This document shows, one piece after another, positions 1 through 6,715 of a DNA stretch of 6,715 bases. The notes beneath the pieces were generated by a model that saw nothing but the letters and a program-made list of their open reading frames with translations, ran no database searches and was not told where the DNA came from. This DNA is from a virus (lineage: Duplodnaviria; Heunggongvirae; Uroviricota; Caudoviricetes), in the IMG/VR virus record IMGVR_UViG_2711768053_000010. The stretch is one strand, 5' to 3'. The position numbers and the translations under genes are program-made. Each line of letters starts with the position of its first letter. Position 1 is the stretch's first letter.

Positions 1-119
1 TTGTTTTGTTGATGTGATCCTTTCGTGATCGTTTTTCGTCTCGCGTAAAGTATGAAAACTCTTTTAATATCATGCGGTTTTATTGCTCCTGCCATTTGTG
101 CGATCGTAAAAACCACTCT

Positions 120-225
120 GAAAACTGCAAAAAATTTCAAAGCGTGAAATTTCAGATCTTCGCTTTTCCCTCAGTCGCTGCGCGGGCTGGCGGTCATTTT
201 TGCACGGCAGAAAACTGAAAAACTG
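120..225. repeat. Recurrent GAAAACTG motif in the non-coding flank
   Basis: GAAAACTG at 120-127 and 210-217, GAAAAACTG at 217-225, and GAAAACT at 54-60. Also a perfect 10-bp palindrome TGAAATTTCA at 145-154, preceded by a second AAATTTCA at 132-139. Confidence 0.4.
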
Positions 226-264
226 TTTCGACACAAAACCCGCGGGTTGGAGGGGGTAGCGCGG

Positions 265-308
265 TTTACGTCACCTCACGCTTTACGTCACACCGTTTAC
301 GTGGTGTG
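265..308. repeat. Three direct repeats of TTTACGT(C/G), the third inside a CACACC/GGTGTG inverted repeat
   Basis: TTTACGTCAC at 265-274 and 282-291, TTTACGTGGT at 296-305. CACACC (289-294) and GGTGTG (303-308) are reverse complements flanking the third copy. Read directly from the sequence in non-coding DNA. Confidence 0.5.
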
Positions 309-425
309 CGCATACAGCGCCGGAATGGCACGCAGAACGCATTAATCAGGTGGCAGATATGAAACCGCACGGCCTGAACCGTGCGTTGCGTGATGGGGCG
401 TTTATGTGGATTTTATGCCCGGTGA

Positions 426-2123
426 TCAGGCGATAAGGTCGCCGTATTTTTCGCGCAGGCTCGTAGCCTGTTGGGCGTCTGCGGCAAGTTCGCTGCTGTT
501 TGTTGGTGCGCCAGTGTTGCTGTGGGTGTGGTTTGCAGTGTGTGTGGCCAGCAACTGAACCAGATCCAGAATATCAATCAACAACGTCAGCAGATTAAGC
601 CCGGATTTTTCCCGTGAGCCACCGCGACCGATAAATACAGTCGGGGCGGTAAATTCCAGGCCGCCGTCCGCCCGGCATGTTCTGCGGCCTCCCACGTTTT
701 CGGTGAGGTTATGTTCGATGGTGGATGTCGCCCCTTTGAGTTTAGTCAGCAAATCCTGCGCTACCATCTGGATATGCTCACTGGCTGCGATCGCGTAATG
801 GCCGGTAGTAAGGTGCTCTATTTGTCCTGCCATTAGCTTGCTGGTTCCCAGAACGCTGGTTATATCGTTTGCCTGTACTGTGGTTGTTCTGGTTGTTGTT
901 GTGCGTTCCTCCTGATCGCTGTTAATGGTTCGCCGGGCTGAATGTTCTCTGATTTGCTGGTCGGTTTCTCTGTGCCAGCTCCCGTCAGTCGTGACACGCT
1001 GAAACACTTCTGCGCGCTGTTGTTGCAATTGTTCGCCGGGCTTTACATCAGGCAGGTTATGGCCAGCGGGTAAGATTTGCCTGATAACAGGCTTATCCGG
1101 GCGTCCTTCAATGTTGGATATTTCCACGATGGTGCCTGCTGGCGGGTAGGCAAAACATCCCGCCTCACTGCCAGCCATGGGGACGGGGAGGGGTACTGCC
1201 GGGTAAACAGGCGTATCGTTTTTATCGTTGCCGTTCTCATCAAGCAACTGCACATCGACGGCGTAGCGTGGGCGGAAGCTGTCGGCTACATCGCCCAGGG
1301 TGACGGATTCCGTTGGGGCAATGACGCGCGCCAGCCGGGTATGTAGCGTACCGCTGGCCAGTTCCGGGAACTGTGTTTCCATTTGTCTGCGTAATGGTGA
1401 TTTGGAAACAGGGCTACCCGTGGCGGTAAGGCGCTCCCATGTCAGGGTCATTTTCTCGTTGTTGAGGGCTACACGGGTAATGCGCCCGGCCGGAAGGTTC
1501 ACGCCCGGTCGCACAGTTTCCATAAACATGATGTCGATGCTGTTTCCGCCGCTTTGCCCGAGTGTGTACTGTTGCGGAATATCCGGCATTGTAATACTGG
1601 CAAATCGTGAATCAGCTGCGCTTCCCACAAATACAGAACCGTCCGGCATTGGATGCCAGACGTAATCGCTGATACTGAATGCTCGCCCCAGTTGGCTGAG
1701 CAGTTGTGCTCCGCTGCCGCTGTGGGTGATGTAGGGAGTTGGTGTGCTGGCGTAATCCGCATCTGGCGTGATGAAAACGATGCCGCTTTGTTTACCCAGA
1801 TTATCGAGTACCCCCCGCAACGTCGGGTGTTGCATGGAGCAGGGGAAATCAAAATCCAGCACAGCAGCTGCTTCGCGGATAAAAAGGCGACGTGAGCCAT
1901 TTTCAGCAGGTTGATCGCGCTCAATGTAGCCGGAGAAATAGCGCCATGCTTCACCGTCACGGCCGAGATCAATTTGTACCATTGCGCCGGCAAGGGTGTG
2001 TTCGGGTGACAGATTGTTAACAGAAATGAAGCCACGACCGGCAGCATTCAGGGTAAGAACAAGGCTTATATCGGCAATTTCCACCCGTTCGCCATTAATC
2101 ATGCAGCGTTGTATCAATTTCAT
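426..2123 (-). CDS. Baseplate hub / central spike fusion protein (gp27/gpD-like N-terminal domain plus gp5/gpV-like OB-fold and His-rich apex; VgrG-like)
   Basis: 565-aa ORF. Residues about 311-358 (PLPVPMAGSEAGCFAYPPAGTIVEISNIEGRPDKPVIRQILPAGHNLP) match the gp5/VgrG OB-fold signature (P-x-G-x-V-x-V-x-F-x-EG-x-PD-x-P-I ... N-x-P). The C-terminal LLATHTANHTHSNTGAPTNSS resembles the His-x-His apex of P2 gpV (...LHTHKHPGDSGGTTGSPL, from memory). The N-terminal 270 aa follow the general hub-domain pattern (YFSGYIERDQPAENGSRRLFIREAAAVL; SGAQLLSQLGRAFSISDYVWHPMPDGSVFVG). The ORF itself is near-certain; the product assignment is moderate. Confidence 0.6.
   Translation of the reverse strand: MKLIQRCMINGERVEIADISLVLTLNAAGRGFISVNNLSPEHTLAGAMVQIDLGRDGEAWRYFSGYIERDQPAENGSRRLFIREAAAVLDFDFPCSMQHPTLRGVLDNLGKQSGIVFITPDADYASTPTPYITHSGSGAQLLSQLGRAFSISDYVWHPMPDGSVFVGSAADSRFASITMPDIPQQYTLGQSGGNSIDIMFMETVRPGVNLPAGRITRVALNNEKMTLTWERLTATGSPVSKSPLRRQMETQFPELASGTLHTRLARVIAPTESVTLGDVADSFRPRYAVDVQLLDENGNDKNDTPVYPAVPLPVPMAGSEAGCFAYPPAGTIVEISNIEGRPDKPVIRQILPAGHNLPDVKPGEQLQQQRAEVFQRVTTDGSWHRETDQQIREHSARRTINSDQEERTTTTRTTTVQANDITSVLGTSKLMAGQIEHLTTGHYAIAASEHIQMVAQDLLTKLKGATSTIEHNLTENVGGRRTCRADGGLEFTAPTVFIGRGGSREKSGLNLLTLLIDILDLVQLLATHTANHTHSNTGAPTNSSELAADAQQATSLREKYGDLIA
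429..451 (+). terminator. Weak hairpin plus T-run on the plus strand, overlapping the 3' end of the hub-spike gene
   Basis: GGCGA (429-433), loop TAAGG, TCGCC (439-443), then GTATTTTT (444-451). The stem is only 5 bp. It could terminate a rightward transcript from the 1-425 flank, convergent with the tail operon. Confidence 0.25.
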
Positions 2124-2695
2124 GTTTTCCCTTCCTCTTTCACGCTCCCGATGCCAACAGCATCCAGACCAGAGCCAACGGCATCATTGATTTTTTTCCA
2201 GAACGAACTTTGCGTATTCATGCCTTTGTCTGGTGCCTGTTCGCTGCCATTCTGGGTCTGCTGTCTGGCGATGGTTTTCTGCGAACCGCTGCGTGCGGAT
2301 GCTTTCTCTGGCACGCTTAATTTTTCCCTGAGAGTAAAGGTGATCTGCCAGTGCATTTTTCCCTGTTGTTCCGTGGCATCAATGCCACCAGAAAATACCC
2401 CCTGTCGCATATTGATTGCCTTCGCGGTAGCGTTAGCAATGCGATATGTTTTTTTAGCACCGTTGCTTTCTGTTGCCTCCGCAAGCTGAAAAATACGGGT
2501 CAGAATAGCTTCATCGTTAAAATCAATAACCCCCGACACGCGCAGCTCTTTAGCCTTGTTTCCCTGCTGGGCGCTCGTGGTGCTGGTTGACTGTCCGGAC
2601 ATATCTTTGTCCGGTAGTTGCATGGTGGCGCTGACGGTGATGTTGCGCAGCAGAATGGCTTCTCCGTCAAGCGCAAGGACAATCATCTGGGTCAT
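2120..2695 (-). CDS. Hypothetical protein (191 aa), possibly baseplate-associated
   Basis: ORF with an AAGGGAAG Shine-Dalgarno-like sequence 8-12 nt upstream of its ATG. It overlaps the 237-aa ORF by 29 nt and its stop overlaps the start of the hub-spike gene (ATGA at 2120-2123). No confident motif. Any link to baseplate tube-initiator or LysM-type proteins (P2 gpU/gpX class), which usually sit just upstream of hub genes, is positional inference only. Confidence 0.5.
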   Translation of the reverse strand: MTQMIVLALDGEAILLRNITVSATMQLPDKDMSGQSTSTTSAQQGNKAKELRVSGVIDFNDEAILTRIFQLAEATESNGAKKTYRIANATAKAINMRQGVFSGGIDATEQQGKMHWQITFTLREKLSVPEKASARSGSQKTIARQQTQNGSEQAPDKGMNTQSSFWKKINDAVGSGLDAVGIGSVKEEGKT

Positions 2696-3380
2696 GTAGT
2701 GCTTCCCTTAGTGATGAGAGATTATCGCCGACGAACAGCATCACAGCTGTAAAAACCCACTCGGGGTGTGGGATGTTTTTTTGTATCAGCACTGCAGCTT
2801 GGCTAAGGGCTCCTTTGTAGCAAAAGCGCCACACCGGGCAAAATTTTTGCCGGAGTGCGGCCTGCTGATTAGCTATTTCCTGTAAGGCTTTATCTCTCGC
2901 ATTCATGAACTGATGCAGTGATGATGACAATGTTTCCGGTGATGTAGCGGCAGGAGTGGCTGCCTGTGCAATGGTTGCCGCCAGCGACATGCTGCGAGTG
3001 GTCTGTGTCGACAGCATTATCGGTTCCGGAAGTGATGTTGCCGGTCTGGCGGGGATTTGCATTCTGCTGATGGCCAGTGAAAGCTGGCTGGAGATCATGC
3101 GGGACATTCGTCCCACCTCCGGCAACGGAAATGCGCCTGAAAATTGCCTGGCGAGTGATAAAAACTCGCCAGCAGAAGGAGCGCAAAATAACAGCGCCAC
3201 AATGTCCTTTTCCGTGTTTTCTTTCAGATAGGGTAAAAGTGCAGATACAGCATTTTCGGGGCTGAGATAACGCCCCGATGGTTTGATGTTTCCGGTATTT
3301 TCTGACCATGGATGAAGGCAAACCACAGAGCATTTAATGTTCATGGCTGACGGGCGCAGAATTGCGTTTTCCCATTTCAT
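2667..3380 (-). CDS. Hypothetical protein (237 aa), function unknown
   Basis: Long ORF whose ATG overlaps the stop of the upstream chaperone in an ATGA arrangement (3377-3380). The N-terminal 90 aa look globular; the middle is S/T/A/P/Q-rich (PARPATSLPEPIMLSTQTTRSMSLAATIAQAATPAATSPETLSSS) followed by a short helical-looking stretch (ARDKALQEIANQQAALRQKF). I recognise no family motif. Confidence is reduced because a hairpin with flanking A/T runs (2751-2782) and a near-palindrome (2835-2853) lie inside its 3' third. Confidence 0.45.
   Translation of the reverse strand: MKWENAILRPSAMNIKCSVVCLHPWSENTGNIKPSGRYLSPENAVSALLPYLKENTEKDIVALLFCAPSAGEFLSLARQFSGAFPLPEVGRMSRMISSQLSLAISRMQIPARPATSLPEPIMLSTQTTRSMSLAATIAQAATPAATSPETLSSSLHQFMNARDKALQEIANQQAALRQKFCPVWRFCYKGALSQAAVLIQKNIPHPEWVFTAVMLFVGDNLSSLREALHDPDDCPCA
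2751..2782. terminator. Terminator-like hairpin flanked by A5 and T7, embedded in the 237-aa ORF
   Basis: AAAAA (2751-2755), then CCCAC (2756-2760), loop TCGGGGT, GTGGG (2768-2772), then AT and TTTTTTT (2776-2782). The symmetric A and T runs mean it could terminate on either strand. It lies 55-85 nt upstream of the 191-aa start codon and encodes QKNIPHPEWVF of the 237-aa ORF. Confidence 0.3.
2835..2853. promoter_or_regulatory. Near-perfect 19-bp palindrome CGGGCAAAA-T-TTTTGCCGG
   Basis: Read from the sequence: arms GCAAAA / TTTTGC around T2844, extended by flanking CGG/CCG with one mismatch. Operator-like dyad symmetry, located inside the 237-aa ORF about 140 nt upstream of the 191-aa start. 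Function not demonstrated. Confidence 0.2.
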
Positions 3381-3958
3381 TCTGACTCTCCAGCCTGAAA
3401 AGCGCGGATGTCGGCAAGATTATTCAGGCTATCCAGCACGTCCTTCATCTGTCGCTGACGTCGATAAATTTCATCATTGCGGTTAACCTGCGCCTGCGCC
3501 ATTGCTGTCGCCAGTTCTTCCAGTTCCGGCATTGACAGTTTCACCTGTTGATTATCGGCATCACCCCACGCAAGGGTGGTTCGTGCCGTATCGGATTTCG
3601 CCGCCATTACTACCGGATAAAGACGGGCCATTGAGTCGGGGCCGGCGTTCCAGGTGTGACCGTTCCATTCGAACATGAACGGTTGCGCTTCCTGTTCTGT
3701 GCGCCACGCCTCGATTTCTCGTTTTTTAGCGTCCTTTGCTGCTGCGATAAGTTCAGGCGTGACGGTGAACGGGGCGATTTCACCCCATTTGCCGCTCTGT
3801 AACTCCTCCCAGATGCGCTGGCCTGTCGGTGCGGTATCATCCTGCATGGCGGTATACAGGACGAATTCCGTTTCACCTTCAAATAACACCTCGCAGTCAA
3901 CCGCGCCATTTTCAAGATAATGCGCGTTTCTGATGCCTTTTACCGCTCTGATTCTCAT
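3377..3958 (-). CDS. Tail fibre assembly chaperone, DUF4376-like
   Basis: 193-aa ORF immediately downstream of the 690-aa fibre, with a GGGGA Shine-Dalgarno-like sequence about 8 nt upstream. The segment FMFEWNGHTWNAGPDSMARLYPVVMAAKSDTARTTLAWGDADNQQVKLSMPELEELATAMAQAQVNRNDEIYRRQRQMKDVLDSLNNLADIRAFQ fits my recollection of the DUF4376 pattern (FEW-GH-W ... W-DADN ... EL ... RQR-MK ... DIR) found in fibre chaperones. It is a different family from the Tfa at 6051-6602. Confidence 0.7.
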   Translation of the reverse strand: MRIRAVKGIRNAHYLENGAVDCEVLFEGETEFVLYTAMQDDTAPTGQRIWEELQSGKWGEIAPFTVTPELIAAAKDAKKREIEAWRTEQEAQPFMFEWNGHTWNAGPDSMARLYPVVMAAKSDTARTTLAWGDADNQQVKLSMPELEELATAMAQAQVNRNDEIYRRQRQMKDVLDSLNNLADIRAFQAGESE

Positions 3959-3971
3959 GTCTTATTCCCCG

Positions 3972-6044
3972 TTACTCGATGCGCACAAACAGGCATGTTA
4001 AAGCCCCGTTGGTAGCCACGCCGCTGTAACCGGACAGCGCCATATAACGCCCCGGAAAACTGTAGCTGCCTGCACCATAAACTGTAAGTTGTGCTGAATA
4101 GGTGTATGAGCCCGTCTCACTGAACATGGATGCGATACGAACCGGCCCCAGACGGGACCCCGGCACCACGTCGCCCAGGCCAATTTTTATGGACGTATCA
4201 CCCGTCTCAGTTCCCTGATATGCCGCCAGTATTGGCACACCAACCGCCGGATATTTGTAATATGAGCCTGAGCCCGCCATCCTGGACAACAGGTACGCCA
4301 GTGAATCTCCGTCGTAGACAACTACCCGCGATGACATGTTCCAGCTGTTATCGCTGTCGTTGTACCGGTACTGCATATAGTGAATACAGTGTTCACCCTG
4401 ATAATACTGGTTGTAACACATCAGGGTTTTAAATTTGCGGACTGTGTCAGATTCACTGTTGGCGTACGGGGACCACATCACGTCAATAATGCCGTTAAAT
4501 TGCGTGGTACCGGTAAGCAGTTGTGATGAATCTGTAATACTGACCGCATACCGCCCCGGCGTGACTTTCTTCAGCCATTCAACGAAATCAGACAGTCCCT
4601 CAAACGCCAGAGCGTCGGCACTGGCAAATGCCTGACCAAATCCATGCATGCCGGACAGTGCCAGCCTGCCCTGTGTGCGGTCGCGGATATCACTCTGGGG
4701 TTCCATCGTTGCAGCCGCTTTCAGCTCAAGCTCCGTGCGCATGGCTTCAGGTGTGTCCAGTGCCAGTAATGCGCGGGCTTTTTCTGACAGCTGCGCCAGT
4801 AAAATCCGGCCCTCTTCACTGAAATAAGGCAGCGTGTTTTCTTCCGGTGTTATCTGGCTGACAGCCGTTAACACATCATTAAGCGGCTGTTTACCTGCCA
4901 GTGCGTTCGTGATTGTCGTCGCAAAGTTCGGGTCACCACCCAGCGCCGCTGCCAGCTCGTTCAGCGTGTCCAGGGTTTCCGGTGATGAGTCAACCAGCGC
5001 GGCAAGCAGTTTGCGGACAAACGCCGCATTGGCTATTTCATTACCTGCTGCATCATCCGGCGGTGTTGGCGTGGACGGCGTTCCGGTCAGTGCCGGGCTG
5101 TTCAGTGGCGCGCGGGTTTCAATCAGTGCCCGGAGTGAAGCCTCATTGACTTTCAGGTTTTCCCAGCCAACCAGATAACCATTACTACCTCCCCAGTAAC
5201 GGTTATAATAAATATGGCCGTTAATGCCGTAGAGAATAATGACTTTGACTTCTGCTTCCGAATTGGAATAGGCTTTAGGTTCTGGCCAGATAATTTCAAT
5301 AACACCGTTTGTCTGTATGCCTGGTACCACCACATTTGTGTCCGCAAATACAGTATAACGACCGGGTTTTGCCGTTTTTACCCACCTGAGAAAATCAGTC
5401 CCTGATTTAAATTCTGTTCTGTCGCTACTGGAAAATATTTTCCCGAATCCGAACATGCCAGGAATCGCCAGACGGCCCGGAGTTCTGTCGTGAGTGTCAT
5501 TCTGTGGTTCCATTGTGGCTGCGCTTTTCAGTCCCAGATTGCCTCGGGATTCCTGTTGCGCCTCTTCCCCCTCTGCTGCAATTTCTGACAAACGGTTAGG
5601 GATTTTCAGCATTGATTTCAGCTCTGGATAAAGATCTATCTGCCAGCTCTGTGGAGGAACAGTAATTTGCGCAGCCTGAGCAATGCCGCTGTATATAATC
5701 GTGAAATTACGAATAAGTGACTCGCCTGTCACTTTTTGTCGAACAGGCGTTTTTATTACGCCGCATAGTGTTCCGCTGGCCTGATGGATGAGGCAAATCC
5801 AGTCATAGCTGAATGCACAGTCATCAGGAACAACCGCGCTACACACAATATTGTTCGGGCTTAACTGGCCATAGGTCAGTTCATTCACGGTATATGTGAT
5901 TTTTTCTTCCGGAACGGTATTATCTTCGTGCGTTGGTTCCCGCTCCATCAGGGCAAAAATAATAGTGTCAGGGCGTGCAGGTAAATTACTGGCTGTGCAT
6001 TCAGCAACCCACTTTTCAAATGCTTTCGTCAACAATGCGCTCAT
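3972..6044 (-). CDS. Tail fibre protein (690 aa), mosaic, with an internally duplicated domain
   Basis: Residues about 311-386 (RAPLNSPALTGTPSTPTPP...ANAAFV...LVDSSPETLDTLNELAAALGGDPNFATTITNALAGKQP) match the conserved block shared by P2 H, lambda Stf and related fibres (KAPLNSPALTGTPTTPTA...ALVDSSPDALNTLNELAAALGNDPNFATTMTNALAGKQP, from memory). The start codon is 6 nt after the Tfa stop and the stop is 13 nt before the next chaperone. The C-terminus is rich in G/Y/S, typical of receptor-binding tips. Confidence 0.85.
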   Translation of the reverse strand: MSALLTKAFEKWVAECTASNLPARPDTIIFALMEREPTHEDNTVPEEKITYTVNELTYGQLSPNNIVCSAVVPDDCAFSYDWICLIHQASGTLCGVIKTPVRQKVTGESLIRNFTIIYSGIAQAAQITVPPQSWQIDLYPELKSMLKIPNRLSEIAAEGEEAQQESRGNLGLKSAATMEPQNDTHDRTPGRLAIPGMFGFGKIFSSSDRTEFKSGTDFLRWVKTAKPGRYTVFADTNVVVPGIQTNGVIEIIWPEPKAYSNSEAEVKVIILYGINGHIYYNRYWGGSNGYLVGWENLKVNEASLRALIETRAPLNSPALTGTPSTPTPPDDAAGNEIANAAFVRKLLAALVDSSPETLDTLNELAAALGGDPNFATTITNALAGKQPLNDVLTAVSQITPEENTLPYFSEEGRILLAQLSEKARALLALDTPEAMRTELELKAAATMEPQSDIRDRTQGRLALSGMHGFGQAFASADALAFEGLSDFVEWLKKVTPGRYAVSITDSSQLLTGTTQFNGIIDVMWSPYANSESDTVRKFKTLMCYNQYYQGEHCIHYMQYRYNDSDNSWNMSSRVVVYDGDSLAYLLSRMAGSGSYYKYPAVGVPILAAYQGTETGDTSIKIGLGDVVPGSRLGPVRIASMFSETGSYTYSAQLTVYGAGSYSFPGRYMALSGYSGVATNGALTCLFVRIE
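4335..4725 (-). repeat. Intragenic repeat copy 2 inside the 690-aa fibre gene (about aa 441-570), GC-rich
   Basis: LKAAATMEPQSDIRDRTQGRLALSGMHGFG...GRYAVSITDS...NGIIDVMWSPY is paralogous to copy 1. It lies downstream of the conserved fibre block and continues into the unique G/Y/S-rich C-terminal tip. Confidence 0.6.
5145..5530 (-). repeat. Intragenic repeat copy 1 inside the 690-aa fibre gene (about aa 172-300), AT-rich
   Basis: The protein segment LKSAATMEPQNDTHDRTPGRLAIPGMFGFG...GRYTVFADTN...NGVIEIIWPEP is paralogous to aa about 441-570 of the same protein. DNA at about 5490-5530 (gtcattctgtggttccattgtggctgcgcttttcag) aligns at roughly 80% with 4690-4726 (atcactctggggttccatcgttgcagccgctttcag). 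Hand count of line 5221-5280 gives about 38% GC. Confidence 0.6.
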
Positions 6045-6050
6045 TACTTC

Positions 6051-6602
6051 TTAATTCTCGCTAATGTTCTGCGGTAATTCTGGCCATACAATCGCGGCAT
6101 ACGATGCTTTATCTGTAGCCTGGCTGAATGTCATCTCCCGTAACGTTTTTGTATAAATACGGCAGGCTTTCAGTTTTTCCCTGTCTTCGTCGCTGATTAA
6201 TCCCAGCAGCAGGTCTTTTTCCCATTCGCTGGTCATGATGCTGGCCTGTTTTAACAGTGCATCACGCTCATCTTCCGCTTTAAGTTTGTAGTCGAAGATA
6301 AAATTGCCATCGCGGTAAAACCAGTAACCAGGCACGGTAATACGGCGATTAGCGGTAATATCCGGAACTTCAATAACACTGGCATTACGGGGTTCAATGC
6401 CTGTCACATCCTTACCGACCCACACCACGCGCCCGTCCCCGGTGTAAACCATTTTTATTGTGTCGCTGGCAAAGTTCTTCTGTTCTTCATACCAGTTTTT
6501 GTCGTCTTCCGAAAAAAGCCAGGTGACACCATATTGTTTTGTCAGCTGATATTGTTCCGCGGTTTTCGGATTACCCGCAGTAATATTTTTTAAATGTAAC
6601 AT
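6051..6602 (-). CDS. Tail fibre assembly protein (Tfa / P2 gpG-like chaperone)
   Basis: 183-aa ORF directly after the fibre C-terminus. Its C-terminal segment ...ISDEDREKLKACRIYTKTLREMTFSQATDKASYAAIVWPELP follows the Tfa-family pattern (lambda Tfa: ...[36 protein letters not shown], from memory), including the terminal W-P-x-x-P. A hand count of line 6241-6300 gives about 43% GC, more AT-rich than most of the window. Confidence 0.8.
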   Translation of the reverse strand: MLHLKNITAGNPKTAEQYQLTKQYGVTWLFSEDDKNWYEEQKNFASDTIKMVYTGDGRVVWVGKDVTGIEPRNASVIEVPDITANRRITVPGYWFYRDGNFIFDYKLKAEDERDALLKQASIMTSEWEKDLLLGLISDEDREKLKACRIYTKTLREMTFSQATDKASYAAIVWPELPQNISEN

Positions 6603-6604
6603 TG

Positions 6605-6715
6605 TTAAACACTCGCCACGTTATACCAGGTGCCATTAATCAGTTTCTGAAGCGGTCGGTAATACACGCCGCCGATGTTATCTGCCGAATTACTTCCGGT
6701 TTCCTGCACATTAAT
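6605..6715 (-). CDS. Tail fibre protein, C-terminal fragment (5' part lies beyond the right window edge)
   Basis: Translated by hand: the minus-strand frame is open from the window edge to a TAA at 6605-6607. The 36 residues INVQETGSNSADNIGGVYYRPLQKLINGTWYNVASV closely resemble the extreme C-terminus of phage P2 tail fibre H as I recall it (...RPIQKYINGTWYNVAQV). The stop lies 2 nt before the start codon of the next gene, a fibre chaperone, as in H-G type pairs. Not in the supplied ORF track, presumably because it is edge-truncated. Confidence 0.65.
   Translation of the reverse strand: MNVQETGSNSADNIGGVYYRPLQKLINGTWYNVASV

Follow-up and report, generated by a model that had tools for sequence, protein, structure and literature searches.

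Background

The best-described mosaic tail-fibre genes, P2 H, P1 S, Mu S, lambda stf and T4 gene 37, have blocks in common and variable ends that are exchanged together with a chaperone, with junctions that lie at motifs. PMC3945230 describes how phage lambda recombines with stf/tfa genes of the prophages Rac and Qin, and cites Haggard-Ljungquist 1992 and Sandmeier 1992 and 1994 for fibre mosaicism. The gene considered here lies in IMG/VR virus record IMGVR_UViG_2711768053_000010 (Caudoviricetes), a stretch of 6,715 nucleotides (nt) that we refer to as the window. It occupies positions 3972-6044 on the minus strand as one intact open reading frame (ORF) of 690 amino acids (aa), and nucleotide g of the gene corresponds to window position 6045-g. 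In all likelihood it is the second of two tail-fibre genes in a prophage of the P2/HP1 family. Its product runs from a P2-type baseplate-attachment N-terminus and a linker through an internal domain (D1), a conserved fibre block, a second linker and a second copy of the domain (D2) to a C-terminal tip. An earlier note on this DNA had read the gene as a chimera of two halves, joined where the content of guanine plus cytosine (GC) changes. We consider it highly probable that it is a modular mosaic fibre with an exchangeable cassette.

A cassette shared with long tail fibres

Megablast placed gene nt 568-1898 in one contiguous alignment, at 82-91% identity, with many Escherichia coli chromosomes, and some of these matches continued to nt 2073. 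The contiguous matches lie in proteins of about 1040 aa annotated as 'prophage tail fiber N-terminal domain-containing'. Over this part of the gene, then, a single homologue spans both of the halves that the earlier note had set apart. At the protein level, 117 long proteins covered 75% of the query (about aa 172-690) at 73-92% identity, and only two of the 119 best homologues were full-length with a P2-type N-terminus. D1, block, D2 and tip followed one another in that order in 119 of 119. A gene for a DUF4376 protein comes after the cassette in the loci of the E. coli A36 long fibre (L003), of a lambdoid Stf gene (L004) and of a further long fibre (L005; the record is labelled DH5alpha and the same fibre was matched in E. 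coli W records). The 519 C-terminal residues, comprising D1, block, D2 and tip, very probably constitute a host-range cassette together with the chaperone gene.

In the arrangement that we envisage, the N-terminal domain (aa 1-144) would dock on the baseplate, D2 and the tip of about 115 aa would most likely form the distal receptor-binding head, and the DUF4376 protein, encoded directly downstream, would probably help to fold that head. The same cassette would also end the side tail fibres of about 1040 aa in other Escherichia and Salmonella prophages.

Against sequenced phages, megablast returned only partial matches (Rac-SA53, SerU-LTIIb, phiP27 and vB_Apl-pPE4) and no full-length relative among isolated phages. 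The region of fibre, tail-fibre assembly (Tfa) and DUF4376 genes has 79-85% DNA identity to PP818812.1 (Actinobacillus phage vB_Apl-pPE4) at 42718-45922, with phiP27 in the same range of identity. The recorded host of vB_Apl-pPE4 is Actinobacillus pleuropneumoniae, and such closeness is unexpected for hosts of different families. Many fibres of this kind are named 'shikimate transporter' in NCBI (P0004, P0020, P0024-P0028 and others among the protein homologues; H8, H38 and H39 among the nucleotide matches), evidently a propagated annotation error.

Mosaic structure and junctions

Identity was followed in bins of 90-100 nt against five E. coli loci (Table 1). The prophage backbone on both sides, at 2616-3415 and 5616-6715, is 97-100% identical to P2-like prophages, and between them, over 3416-5615, L003, L004 and L005 take turns as the best relative (100-nt bins). 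The N-terminal domain belongs to this backbone: Pfam PF12571 (Phage_tail_fib) is matched at aa 3-137 (E=1.5e-11; 44.9 bits against a cut-off of 23), and its DNA is 96-100% identical to the P2-like prophages of A36 (L001) and SC418 (L002). The L001 alignment ends at gene nt 415-433, and the linker that follows (aa 145-171) is 100% identical in P0002, the closest full-length relative, and 93% identical in P0007. At the far end, the last 60 or so residues of the tip have been swapped relative to the long fibres of A36 and W, and the DUF4376 gene is itself mosaic, with patchy identity over 3416-4015.

At least four junctions can be placed, at about 5615/5477, at 5111, at about 4147 and at about 3416-3500. 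The boundary near 5615 is the end of the N-terminal domain, and 5477 (gene nt 568), where megablast homology with the long Stf genes starts, lies within the conserved N-terminal motif of D, at Gly190 of GRLA. Position 5111 (gene nt 934) is the 5' edge of the block, and the alignments of L001 and L004 and of the nucleotide matches H2 and H3 all start there; the relatives with this hard boundary are the lambdoid Stf gene of L004, the A36 P2-like orthologue of L001 and the phages vB_Apl-pPE4 and SerU-LTIIb.

The hard boundary at 5111 is what one would look for if a single recombination at the block's 5' edge had fused a foreign, AT-rich 5' half with copy 1 of the domain to a GC-rich 3' half with copy 2, the unusual duplication then serving as a substrate for further exchange. 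Several relatives do lose homology exactly at nt 934, the compositional change-point (5142-5168) adjoins this edge, and the two copies are homologous. The edge is nevertheless only one of the junctions listed above, so that the switch which the earlier note placed exactly there is real as a homology boundary and not as the sole seam. Moreover, long fibres contain the stretch over the step without a break, at up to 91% identity, the D-block-D-tip order is universal among the closest homologues, and D1 is neither the nearest relative of D2 nor similar enough to it in DNA to act as its partner (see below). A single-junction origin is thus improbable, and we regard it as already largely refuted. 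Backbone and cassette meet where the N-terminal domain ends, some 450-500 nt from the GC step. From the identity profiles, the gene appears to be a fine-scale recombinational mosaic; the chimera proposed earlier survives in so far as recombination has shaped the gene, but not as a structure of two parts.

The A36 orthologue in the P2-like prophage (L001 15956-17893) reads N-block-D-D-tip, its N-terminal domain being fused straight to the block, whereas the window gene reads N-D-block-D-tip; this permutation shows directly that modules get reordered. A36 holds both a P2-like fibre and a long fibre with common modules, and near-identical segments in co-resident prophages are the realistic recombination substrates. 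The cassette would have been patched repeatedly by homologous recombination with such prophages, a route that fits the experimentally shown acquisition of stf/tfa genes from defective prophages. Likely crossover anchors would be the N-terminal motif of D (LK.AATMEPQ.D..DRT.GRLA..G..GFG), the block, and the conserved part of D2 with the tip; by column identity the anchors are conserved and the cassettes between them variable.

The block, placed by the earlier note at 4887-5114, was found close to that position (Table 1), and its occurrence in unrelated fibre genes was confirmed. A tblastn search with its 85 aa matched 717 phage records, with carriers that include P1, a Fels-2 gpH-like gene, P2-like phages, the HK630 Stf gene, Klebsiella phages and minor tail proteins of actinobacteriophages, and hits to more than 25 PHROG fibre families coincide at aa ~301-440. 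The tail collar fibre gp4 of PDB 9d93 matches aa 336-398 (E=9.6e-11). PF03406 (Phage_fiber_2) was not reported in the window protein at E<=0.01; the long homologues and fibre 1, the product of the neighbouring fibre gene, have it as a precomputed match.

An assembly artefact would offer a quite different origin for the mosaic pattern. The window is an entire draft contig of 6715 bp (CXXT01000082.1, GCA_001268445.1) and parts of it match fibre genes of other prophage types at 100% identity, so that two prophage fibre genes might have been collapsed into one through the block and through the 100% identical stretch in D2. Yet the ORF is intact, and the same architecture of 685-690 aa, with the same flanking genes, recurs in two independent assemblies and therefore does not come from faulty assembly. 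The individual junctions are found elsewhere too: N-terminus, D1 and block are contiguous in the SC418 chromosome (L002), as are D1, block, D2 and tip in complete genomes (L003, L005). We consider an artefact very improbable.

No invertase ORF was found in the window or in the 30-kb A36 locus, and a repeat search within the gene yielded only short, weak inverted repeats, none of the invertase type; an invertible segment of the Mu G, P1 C or Min type was rejected for lack of an invertase. With regard to a diversity-generating retroelement, no reverse-transcriptase ORF was present among the window ORFs.

The compositional step

The hand counts from which the earlier note started are exact (38.3% GC at 5221-5280 and 65.0% at 4921-4980), and sliding-window and codon analysis agreed that composition along the gene is not uniform. 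A maximum-likelihood single change-point over all positions falls at window 5142 (GC 0.46 versus 0.55), and one computed for third codon positions (GC3; GC1 and GC2 for the first and second) falls at 5168, with a support interval of about 4971-5253 and GC3 of 0.43 versus 0.58. The likelihood-ratio statistic of 16.2, against a 95% null value of 9.5, was reached by none of 1000 permutations (p<=0.001), and a Fisher test at the block edge gave p=1.7e-4. The synonymous step adjoins the 5' edge of the block, and copy 1 is indeed AT-rich and copy 2 richer in GC (Table 1). A second AT-rich dip, at 4300-4550 in a 150-nt profile, has a GC3 of 0.52-0.68; it is an effect of first and second codon positions, that is, of amino-acid composition, and there is therefore essentially one step at synonymous sites.

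Could the step be without historical meaning, the outcome of an Ala/Gly/Pro-rich block standing beside a globular domain rich in Asn, Tyr and Ile? The block's GC1 of 0.70-0.74 and GC2 of 0.50-0.60 point that way, as does the dip at 4300-4550, which is purely one of GC1 and GC2. Against this, GC3 steps as well, with the permutation support given above, and the fold does not dictate AT-richness. In the A36 long fibre the middle D, homologous to D1, is also AT-rich (GC 0.44, GC3 0.41), whereas the corresponding D of the L005 fibre, that of E. coli W, is not (GC3 0.52); with a GC3 of 0.41-0.42 in A36 and the window, AT-richness is therefore specific to the allele. Amino-acid composition is thus unlikely to be the whole explanation. 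AT-richness is a trait of one D allele that moves with the cassette, and the GC step is most probably the border between an AT-rich, hypervariable D1 allele and a GC-rich block, inherited with the cassette and not the scar of a founding event.

The D domain family

The repeated domain described in the earlier note was borne out: D1 and D2 are 44% identical over 121 aa by BLASTP (E=2e-30), with a Smith-Waterman score 49 standard deviations above that of shuffled sequences. In DNA the two are 69% identical over 108 nt (BLASTN) and 55% over 115 aligned codons. The best 36-nt window has 27 identities (75%, against the roughly 80% claimed), and the similarity is in register, with an offset of 807 nt. 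The longest exact run common to both is 9 nt and out of register, and a repeat finder joined nothing in D1 to D2 in register. Such a run falls far short of the known requirement of homologous recombination, and the copies are therefore poor recombination partners for each other, contrary to what had been suggested.

An exhaustive HMMER search with copy 1 against 1.84 billion cluster representatives defined a family of 90 clusters at 50% identity, with one to three D stretches per protein. Among 108 D domains in the representatives, 55 precede a tip, 19 precede a block and 11 precede another D; a D upstream of the block, which the earlier note had thought atypical, is thus nothing unusual, and it is constant among the top homologues of the window gene. 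The commonest architecture is a block, a linker of about 45 aa, D and tip, the block-to-D spacing of about 45 aa being constant across cluster representatives. Others are D-block-D-tip (as in the window gene), D-D-tip, block-D-D-block-D-tip (in long fibres) and D-block-D-block-D. Among phage records the domain occurs in only 13, namely Rac-SA53, Goslar, Av-05, the 18-1-2 group, SerU-LTIIb, phiP27 and vB_Apl-pPE4.

The family alignment puts D1 and D2 at 39% identity; by closeness to D1, D2 comes 47th of 90, and by closeness to D2, D1 comes 10th of 90. Because 46 D domains of other clusters are nearer to D1 than D2 is, some of them directly beside a tip (P0128 at 65%, P0134 and P0135 at 53%), a recent duplication within the gene does not account for the pair. 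D1 and D2 are, in all probability, old paralogues juxtaposed by module shuffling.

Pfam, NCBIfam and PDB sequence searches gave no relative of D or of the tip, a profile of D2 plus tip found nothing among PDB sequences, and an NCBIfam scan of the fibre, both D copies, the distant relative P0296 and the DUF4376 protein was empty. An AlphaFold model of D2 plus tip, built from a 26-row alignment, has a mean pLDDT of 76 (about 80 in D2 and 85-92 in the tip); in it D2 is a single helix and then five strands, and the tip is a beta domain. The fold searches gave no diagnostic relative: Foldseek had no PDB match at E<=0.001, and among predicted viral structures it picked out the fibres of Av-05 and Goslar. 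A single-sequence model of D1 has the same order of elements, with a helix at the equivalent position, but its pLDDT of 46.6 is too poor for a fold search. The models, to the extent that the weaker one can be read, are consistent with one fold for both copies, as 44% identity already implies.

Five short proteins of 256-264 aa (P0132, P0147, P0170, P0214 and P0215) consist of a leader of about 25 aa, one D and a tip only, and could be tip proteins that stand alone, alternative 3' segments or fragments of genes. The UniRef label 'pyocin knob domain-containing' on P0296 is a lead that could not be confirmed. A remark in PMC12143355, on a Vequintavirinae short fibre with a Mu-like C-terminus, is likewise a lead and not a test.

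Several points weigh against the modular account that we favour. Breakpoints were read off pairwise identity profiles against five loci and not from a formal recombination test, and transfer may have run from P2-like to long fibres or the reverse. The structure model is that of a monomer, whereas the fibre should be a trimer, and the amino-acid make-up of the block (GC1 0.66-0.74) accounts for part of the GC step.

Variability of the internal D domain

Column identity was computed among 119 close homologues, a sample biased by ranking on similarity to the query. It is high in the block (0.91-0.96), in the N-terminal motifs of D (0.85-0.97) and in D2 (0.75-0.97). In the second half of D1 it has a minimum of 0.45 at aa 255-269 and is 0.65-0.76 over the rest of aa 210-299 (0.45-0.69 across aa 225-284); the last 60 residues of the tip (aa 630-690) have 0.55-0.63. 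P0002 is 99-100% identical to the window protein in the N-terminus and linker and only 37% in the second half of D1. The AT-rich, variable half of D1 covers aa ~210-299 (window ~5148-5417): the AT-rich patch is the hypervariable part of the internal D.

Such variability is as expected of a surface that meets the host, and could equally be a by-product of frequent cassette exchange. D1-type domains adjoin the tip in other fibres. It is a tentative idea, and one that we think doubtful, that D1 is a second, lateral module for host recognition or docking and not a passive spacer in the shaft. If it were, the fibre would present two serial surface determinants, and shuffling the order of D and block (N-D-block-D-tip against N-block-D-D-tip) would retune host range. 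For fibre engineering and the prediction of host range a modest interest remains, given that D and tip are uncharacterised and that the internal D copy is as variable as the tip.

Gene map and neighbourhood

Table 1. Features of the fibre gene and its surroundings (window positions unless given as gene nt)
Feature	Position	Strand	Remarks
P2 gpH-type baseplate-attachment N-terminal domain, aa 1-144	5613..6044	-	Prophage backbone; GC 0.46, GC3 0.44
Linker between N-terminal domain and D1, aa 145-171 (KIPNRLSEIAAEGEEAQQESRGNLG)	5532..5612	-	Backbone-level identity to A36 ends here
D copy 1 (D1), aa 172-301, internal domain of ~130 aa	5142..5531	-	Domain HMM envelope; GC 0.45, GC3 0.42
Compositional change-point	5142..5168	.	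5142 (all positions); 5168 (GC3)
Conserved fibre block, aa 312-396 (ASLRALIETRAPLNSPALTG...LVDSSPETLDTLNELAAALGGDPNFATT...)	4857..5111	-	GC 0.60; homology boundary at 5' edge
Linker between block and D2, aa 397-440	4725..4856	-	97-100% identity to L003, L005
D copy 2 (D2), aa 441-574, terminal D	4323..4724	-	GC3 0.59; tip always next in its subgroup
C-terminal tip, aa 575-690 (ends ...PGRYMALSG...CLFVRIE)	3975..4322	-	Presumed distal receptor-binding domain
Identity segment	gene nt 541-720		95-98% to A36 long fibre (L003)
Identity segment	gene nt 721-900		<=80% to L003; <=86% to any of five loci
Identity segment	gene nt 901-1170		96-98% to L005 long fibre; down to 91% at nt 1081-1170
Identity segment	gene nt 1441-1800		99-100% to L003 and lambdoid Stf gene L004
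Identity segment	gene nt 1801-2073		99-100% to L004 only
DUF4376 protein, presumed cognate tail-fibre chaperone	3377..3958	-	193 aa; Pfam PF14301, E=2.6e-16; phrog_1141
Caudo_TAP tail-fibre assembly protein	6051..6602	-	183 aa; Pfam PF02413, E=1.1e-22; belongs to fibre 1
Fibre 1, 3' end	6603-6715	-	Gene order in L001, L007, L008

The same locus is held by E. coli genomes at 92-93% identity, within P2-family prophages, in the order tape measure, DUF2590, Baseplate_J, a tail protein of about 211 aa, fibre 1, Tfa, fibre 2, DUF4376 and HP1_ORF34. The order is identical in A36 and in two independent assemblies (L007 and L008) whose full-length homologues are 81-84% identical. Beyond the DUF4376 gene, downstream, Pfam and PHROG identify a 237-aa protein, an HP1_ORF34 baseplate protein and a 565-aa baseplate protein. 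The last, at window 426-2123 and thus downstream of the fibres, matches phrog_2258 ('baseplate protein') and has no Pfam match; the features annotated under H49, an E. coli match to the window, number among them a 'type VI secretion system Vgr family protein' that may be this gene, and the protein may serve as a spike or hub. Overlaps of 29 nt (2667-2695, between the ORFs of 237 and 191 aa) and of 4 nt (3377-3380, between the DUF4376 and 237-aa ORFs) suggest translational coupling of the baseplate genes that follow the fibre. Just past the 565-aa gene, at the prophage end, E. coli genomes have a hok/gef toxin gene (L001 11438-11581, L002 2447-2587); window 1-425 is non-coding, ends short of that gene and has no Rfam match, and an Rfam scan of the window as a whole found no family at threshold.

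The two fibre genes stand in tandem (window 6051-6715 and 3972-6044; L001 15956-20154), both with the PF12571 baseplate-attachment N-terminus, and each has a separate helper, Caudo_TAP for fibre 1 and DUF4376 for fibre 2. PMC10579305 lists DUF4376 proteins as tail-fibre chaperones in the Alteromonas phages V22 and A5, and by analogy the downstream DUF4376 protein is presumed to be a fibre chaperone. The 3' end of fibre 1 together with Tfa (window 6082-6715) is 90.5% identical to 1681-2314 of L003/L005, upstream of the long fibre, in a prophage of a different type (YmfQ/baseplate J; integrated in A36 beside the gene for a tRNA-Ser). When the two prophage types are compared, the N-terminal part of fibre 2 alone is different, and it has homology on either side.

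Comparison with known systems

The window gene is an ordinary modular prophage fibre, a P2-type adaptor joined to a D-block-D-tip-chaperone cassette common among prophages of Escherichia and Salmonella. Both the step in GC and the repeat of the domain, from which an unusual chimera had been deduced, are inherited, family-wide properties of that cassette. The gene thereby becomes a worked example of how fibres are rebuilt from an adaptor N-terminus, a block, a knob-like D and a tip with its chaperone, with junctions at conserved anchors.

Its closest counterparts are the long side tail fibres of about 1035-1048 aa, such as WP_240745489.1 of E. coli A36 and WP_000117760.1 of CP026085, whose C-terminal 519 aa are collinear with the window fibre and 74-92% identical to it. 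They too are followed by a DUF4376 gene and have a 90%-identical Caudo_TAP gene upstream. They differ in having an N-terminus of the lambda Stf type (PF08400) with an extra block and an extra D (block-D-D-block-D-tip), whereas the window fibre has its own 171 aa of P2-type N-terminus and linker (PF12571); Pfam gave no PF08400 match for it, and its identity to the long fibres over aa 1-171 is only 13-30%.

With the fibre of P2 (gpH) and HP1 the window fibre shares PF12571, a place in a P2-family tail operon after Baseplate_J and the gene for the tail protein of about 211 aa, and the conserved block. Unlike P2 gpH, it is the second of two fibres, has two D domains and is followed by DUF4376 rather than by a gpG-type (Caudo_TAP) protein; in comparisons with P2-like phage records only the block of the window fibre matches.

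The R-type pyocin fibre (PDB 6CL6), with tandem knobs before its foot, and the Mu tail-fibre tip (PDB 8JU3) appear alike in outline, in that small repeated globular domains would stand ahead of the receptor-binding end and folding would be assisted by a chaperone. In its common blocks, in variable ends exchanged with a chaperone and in junctions at motifs, the window gene resembles the classic mosaic fibres named at the outset. Unlike those systems, the window and the A36 locus are without an invertase or an invertible segment, and the exchange has instead the look of patchy homologous recombination among co-resident prophages.

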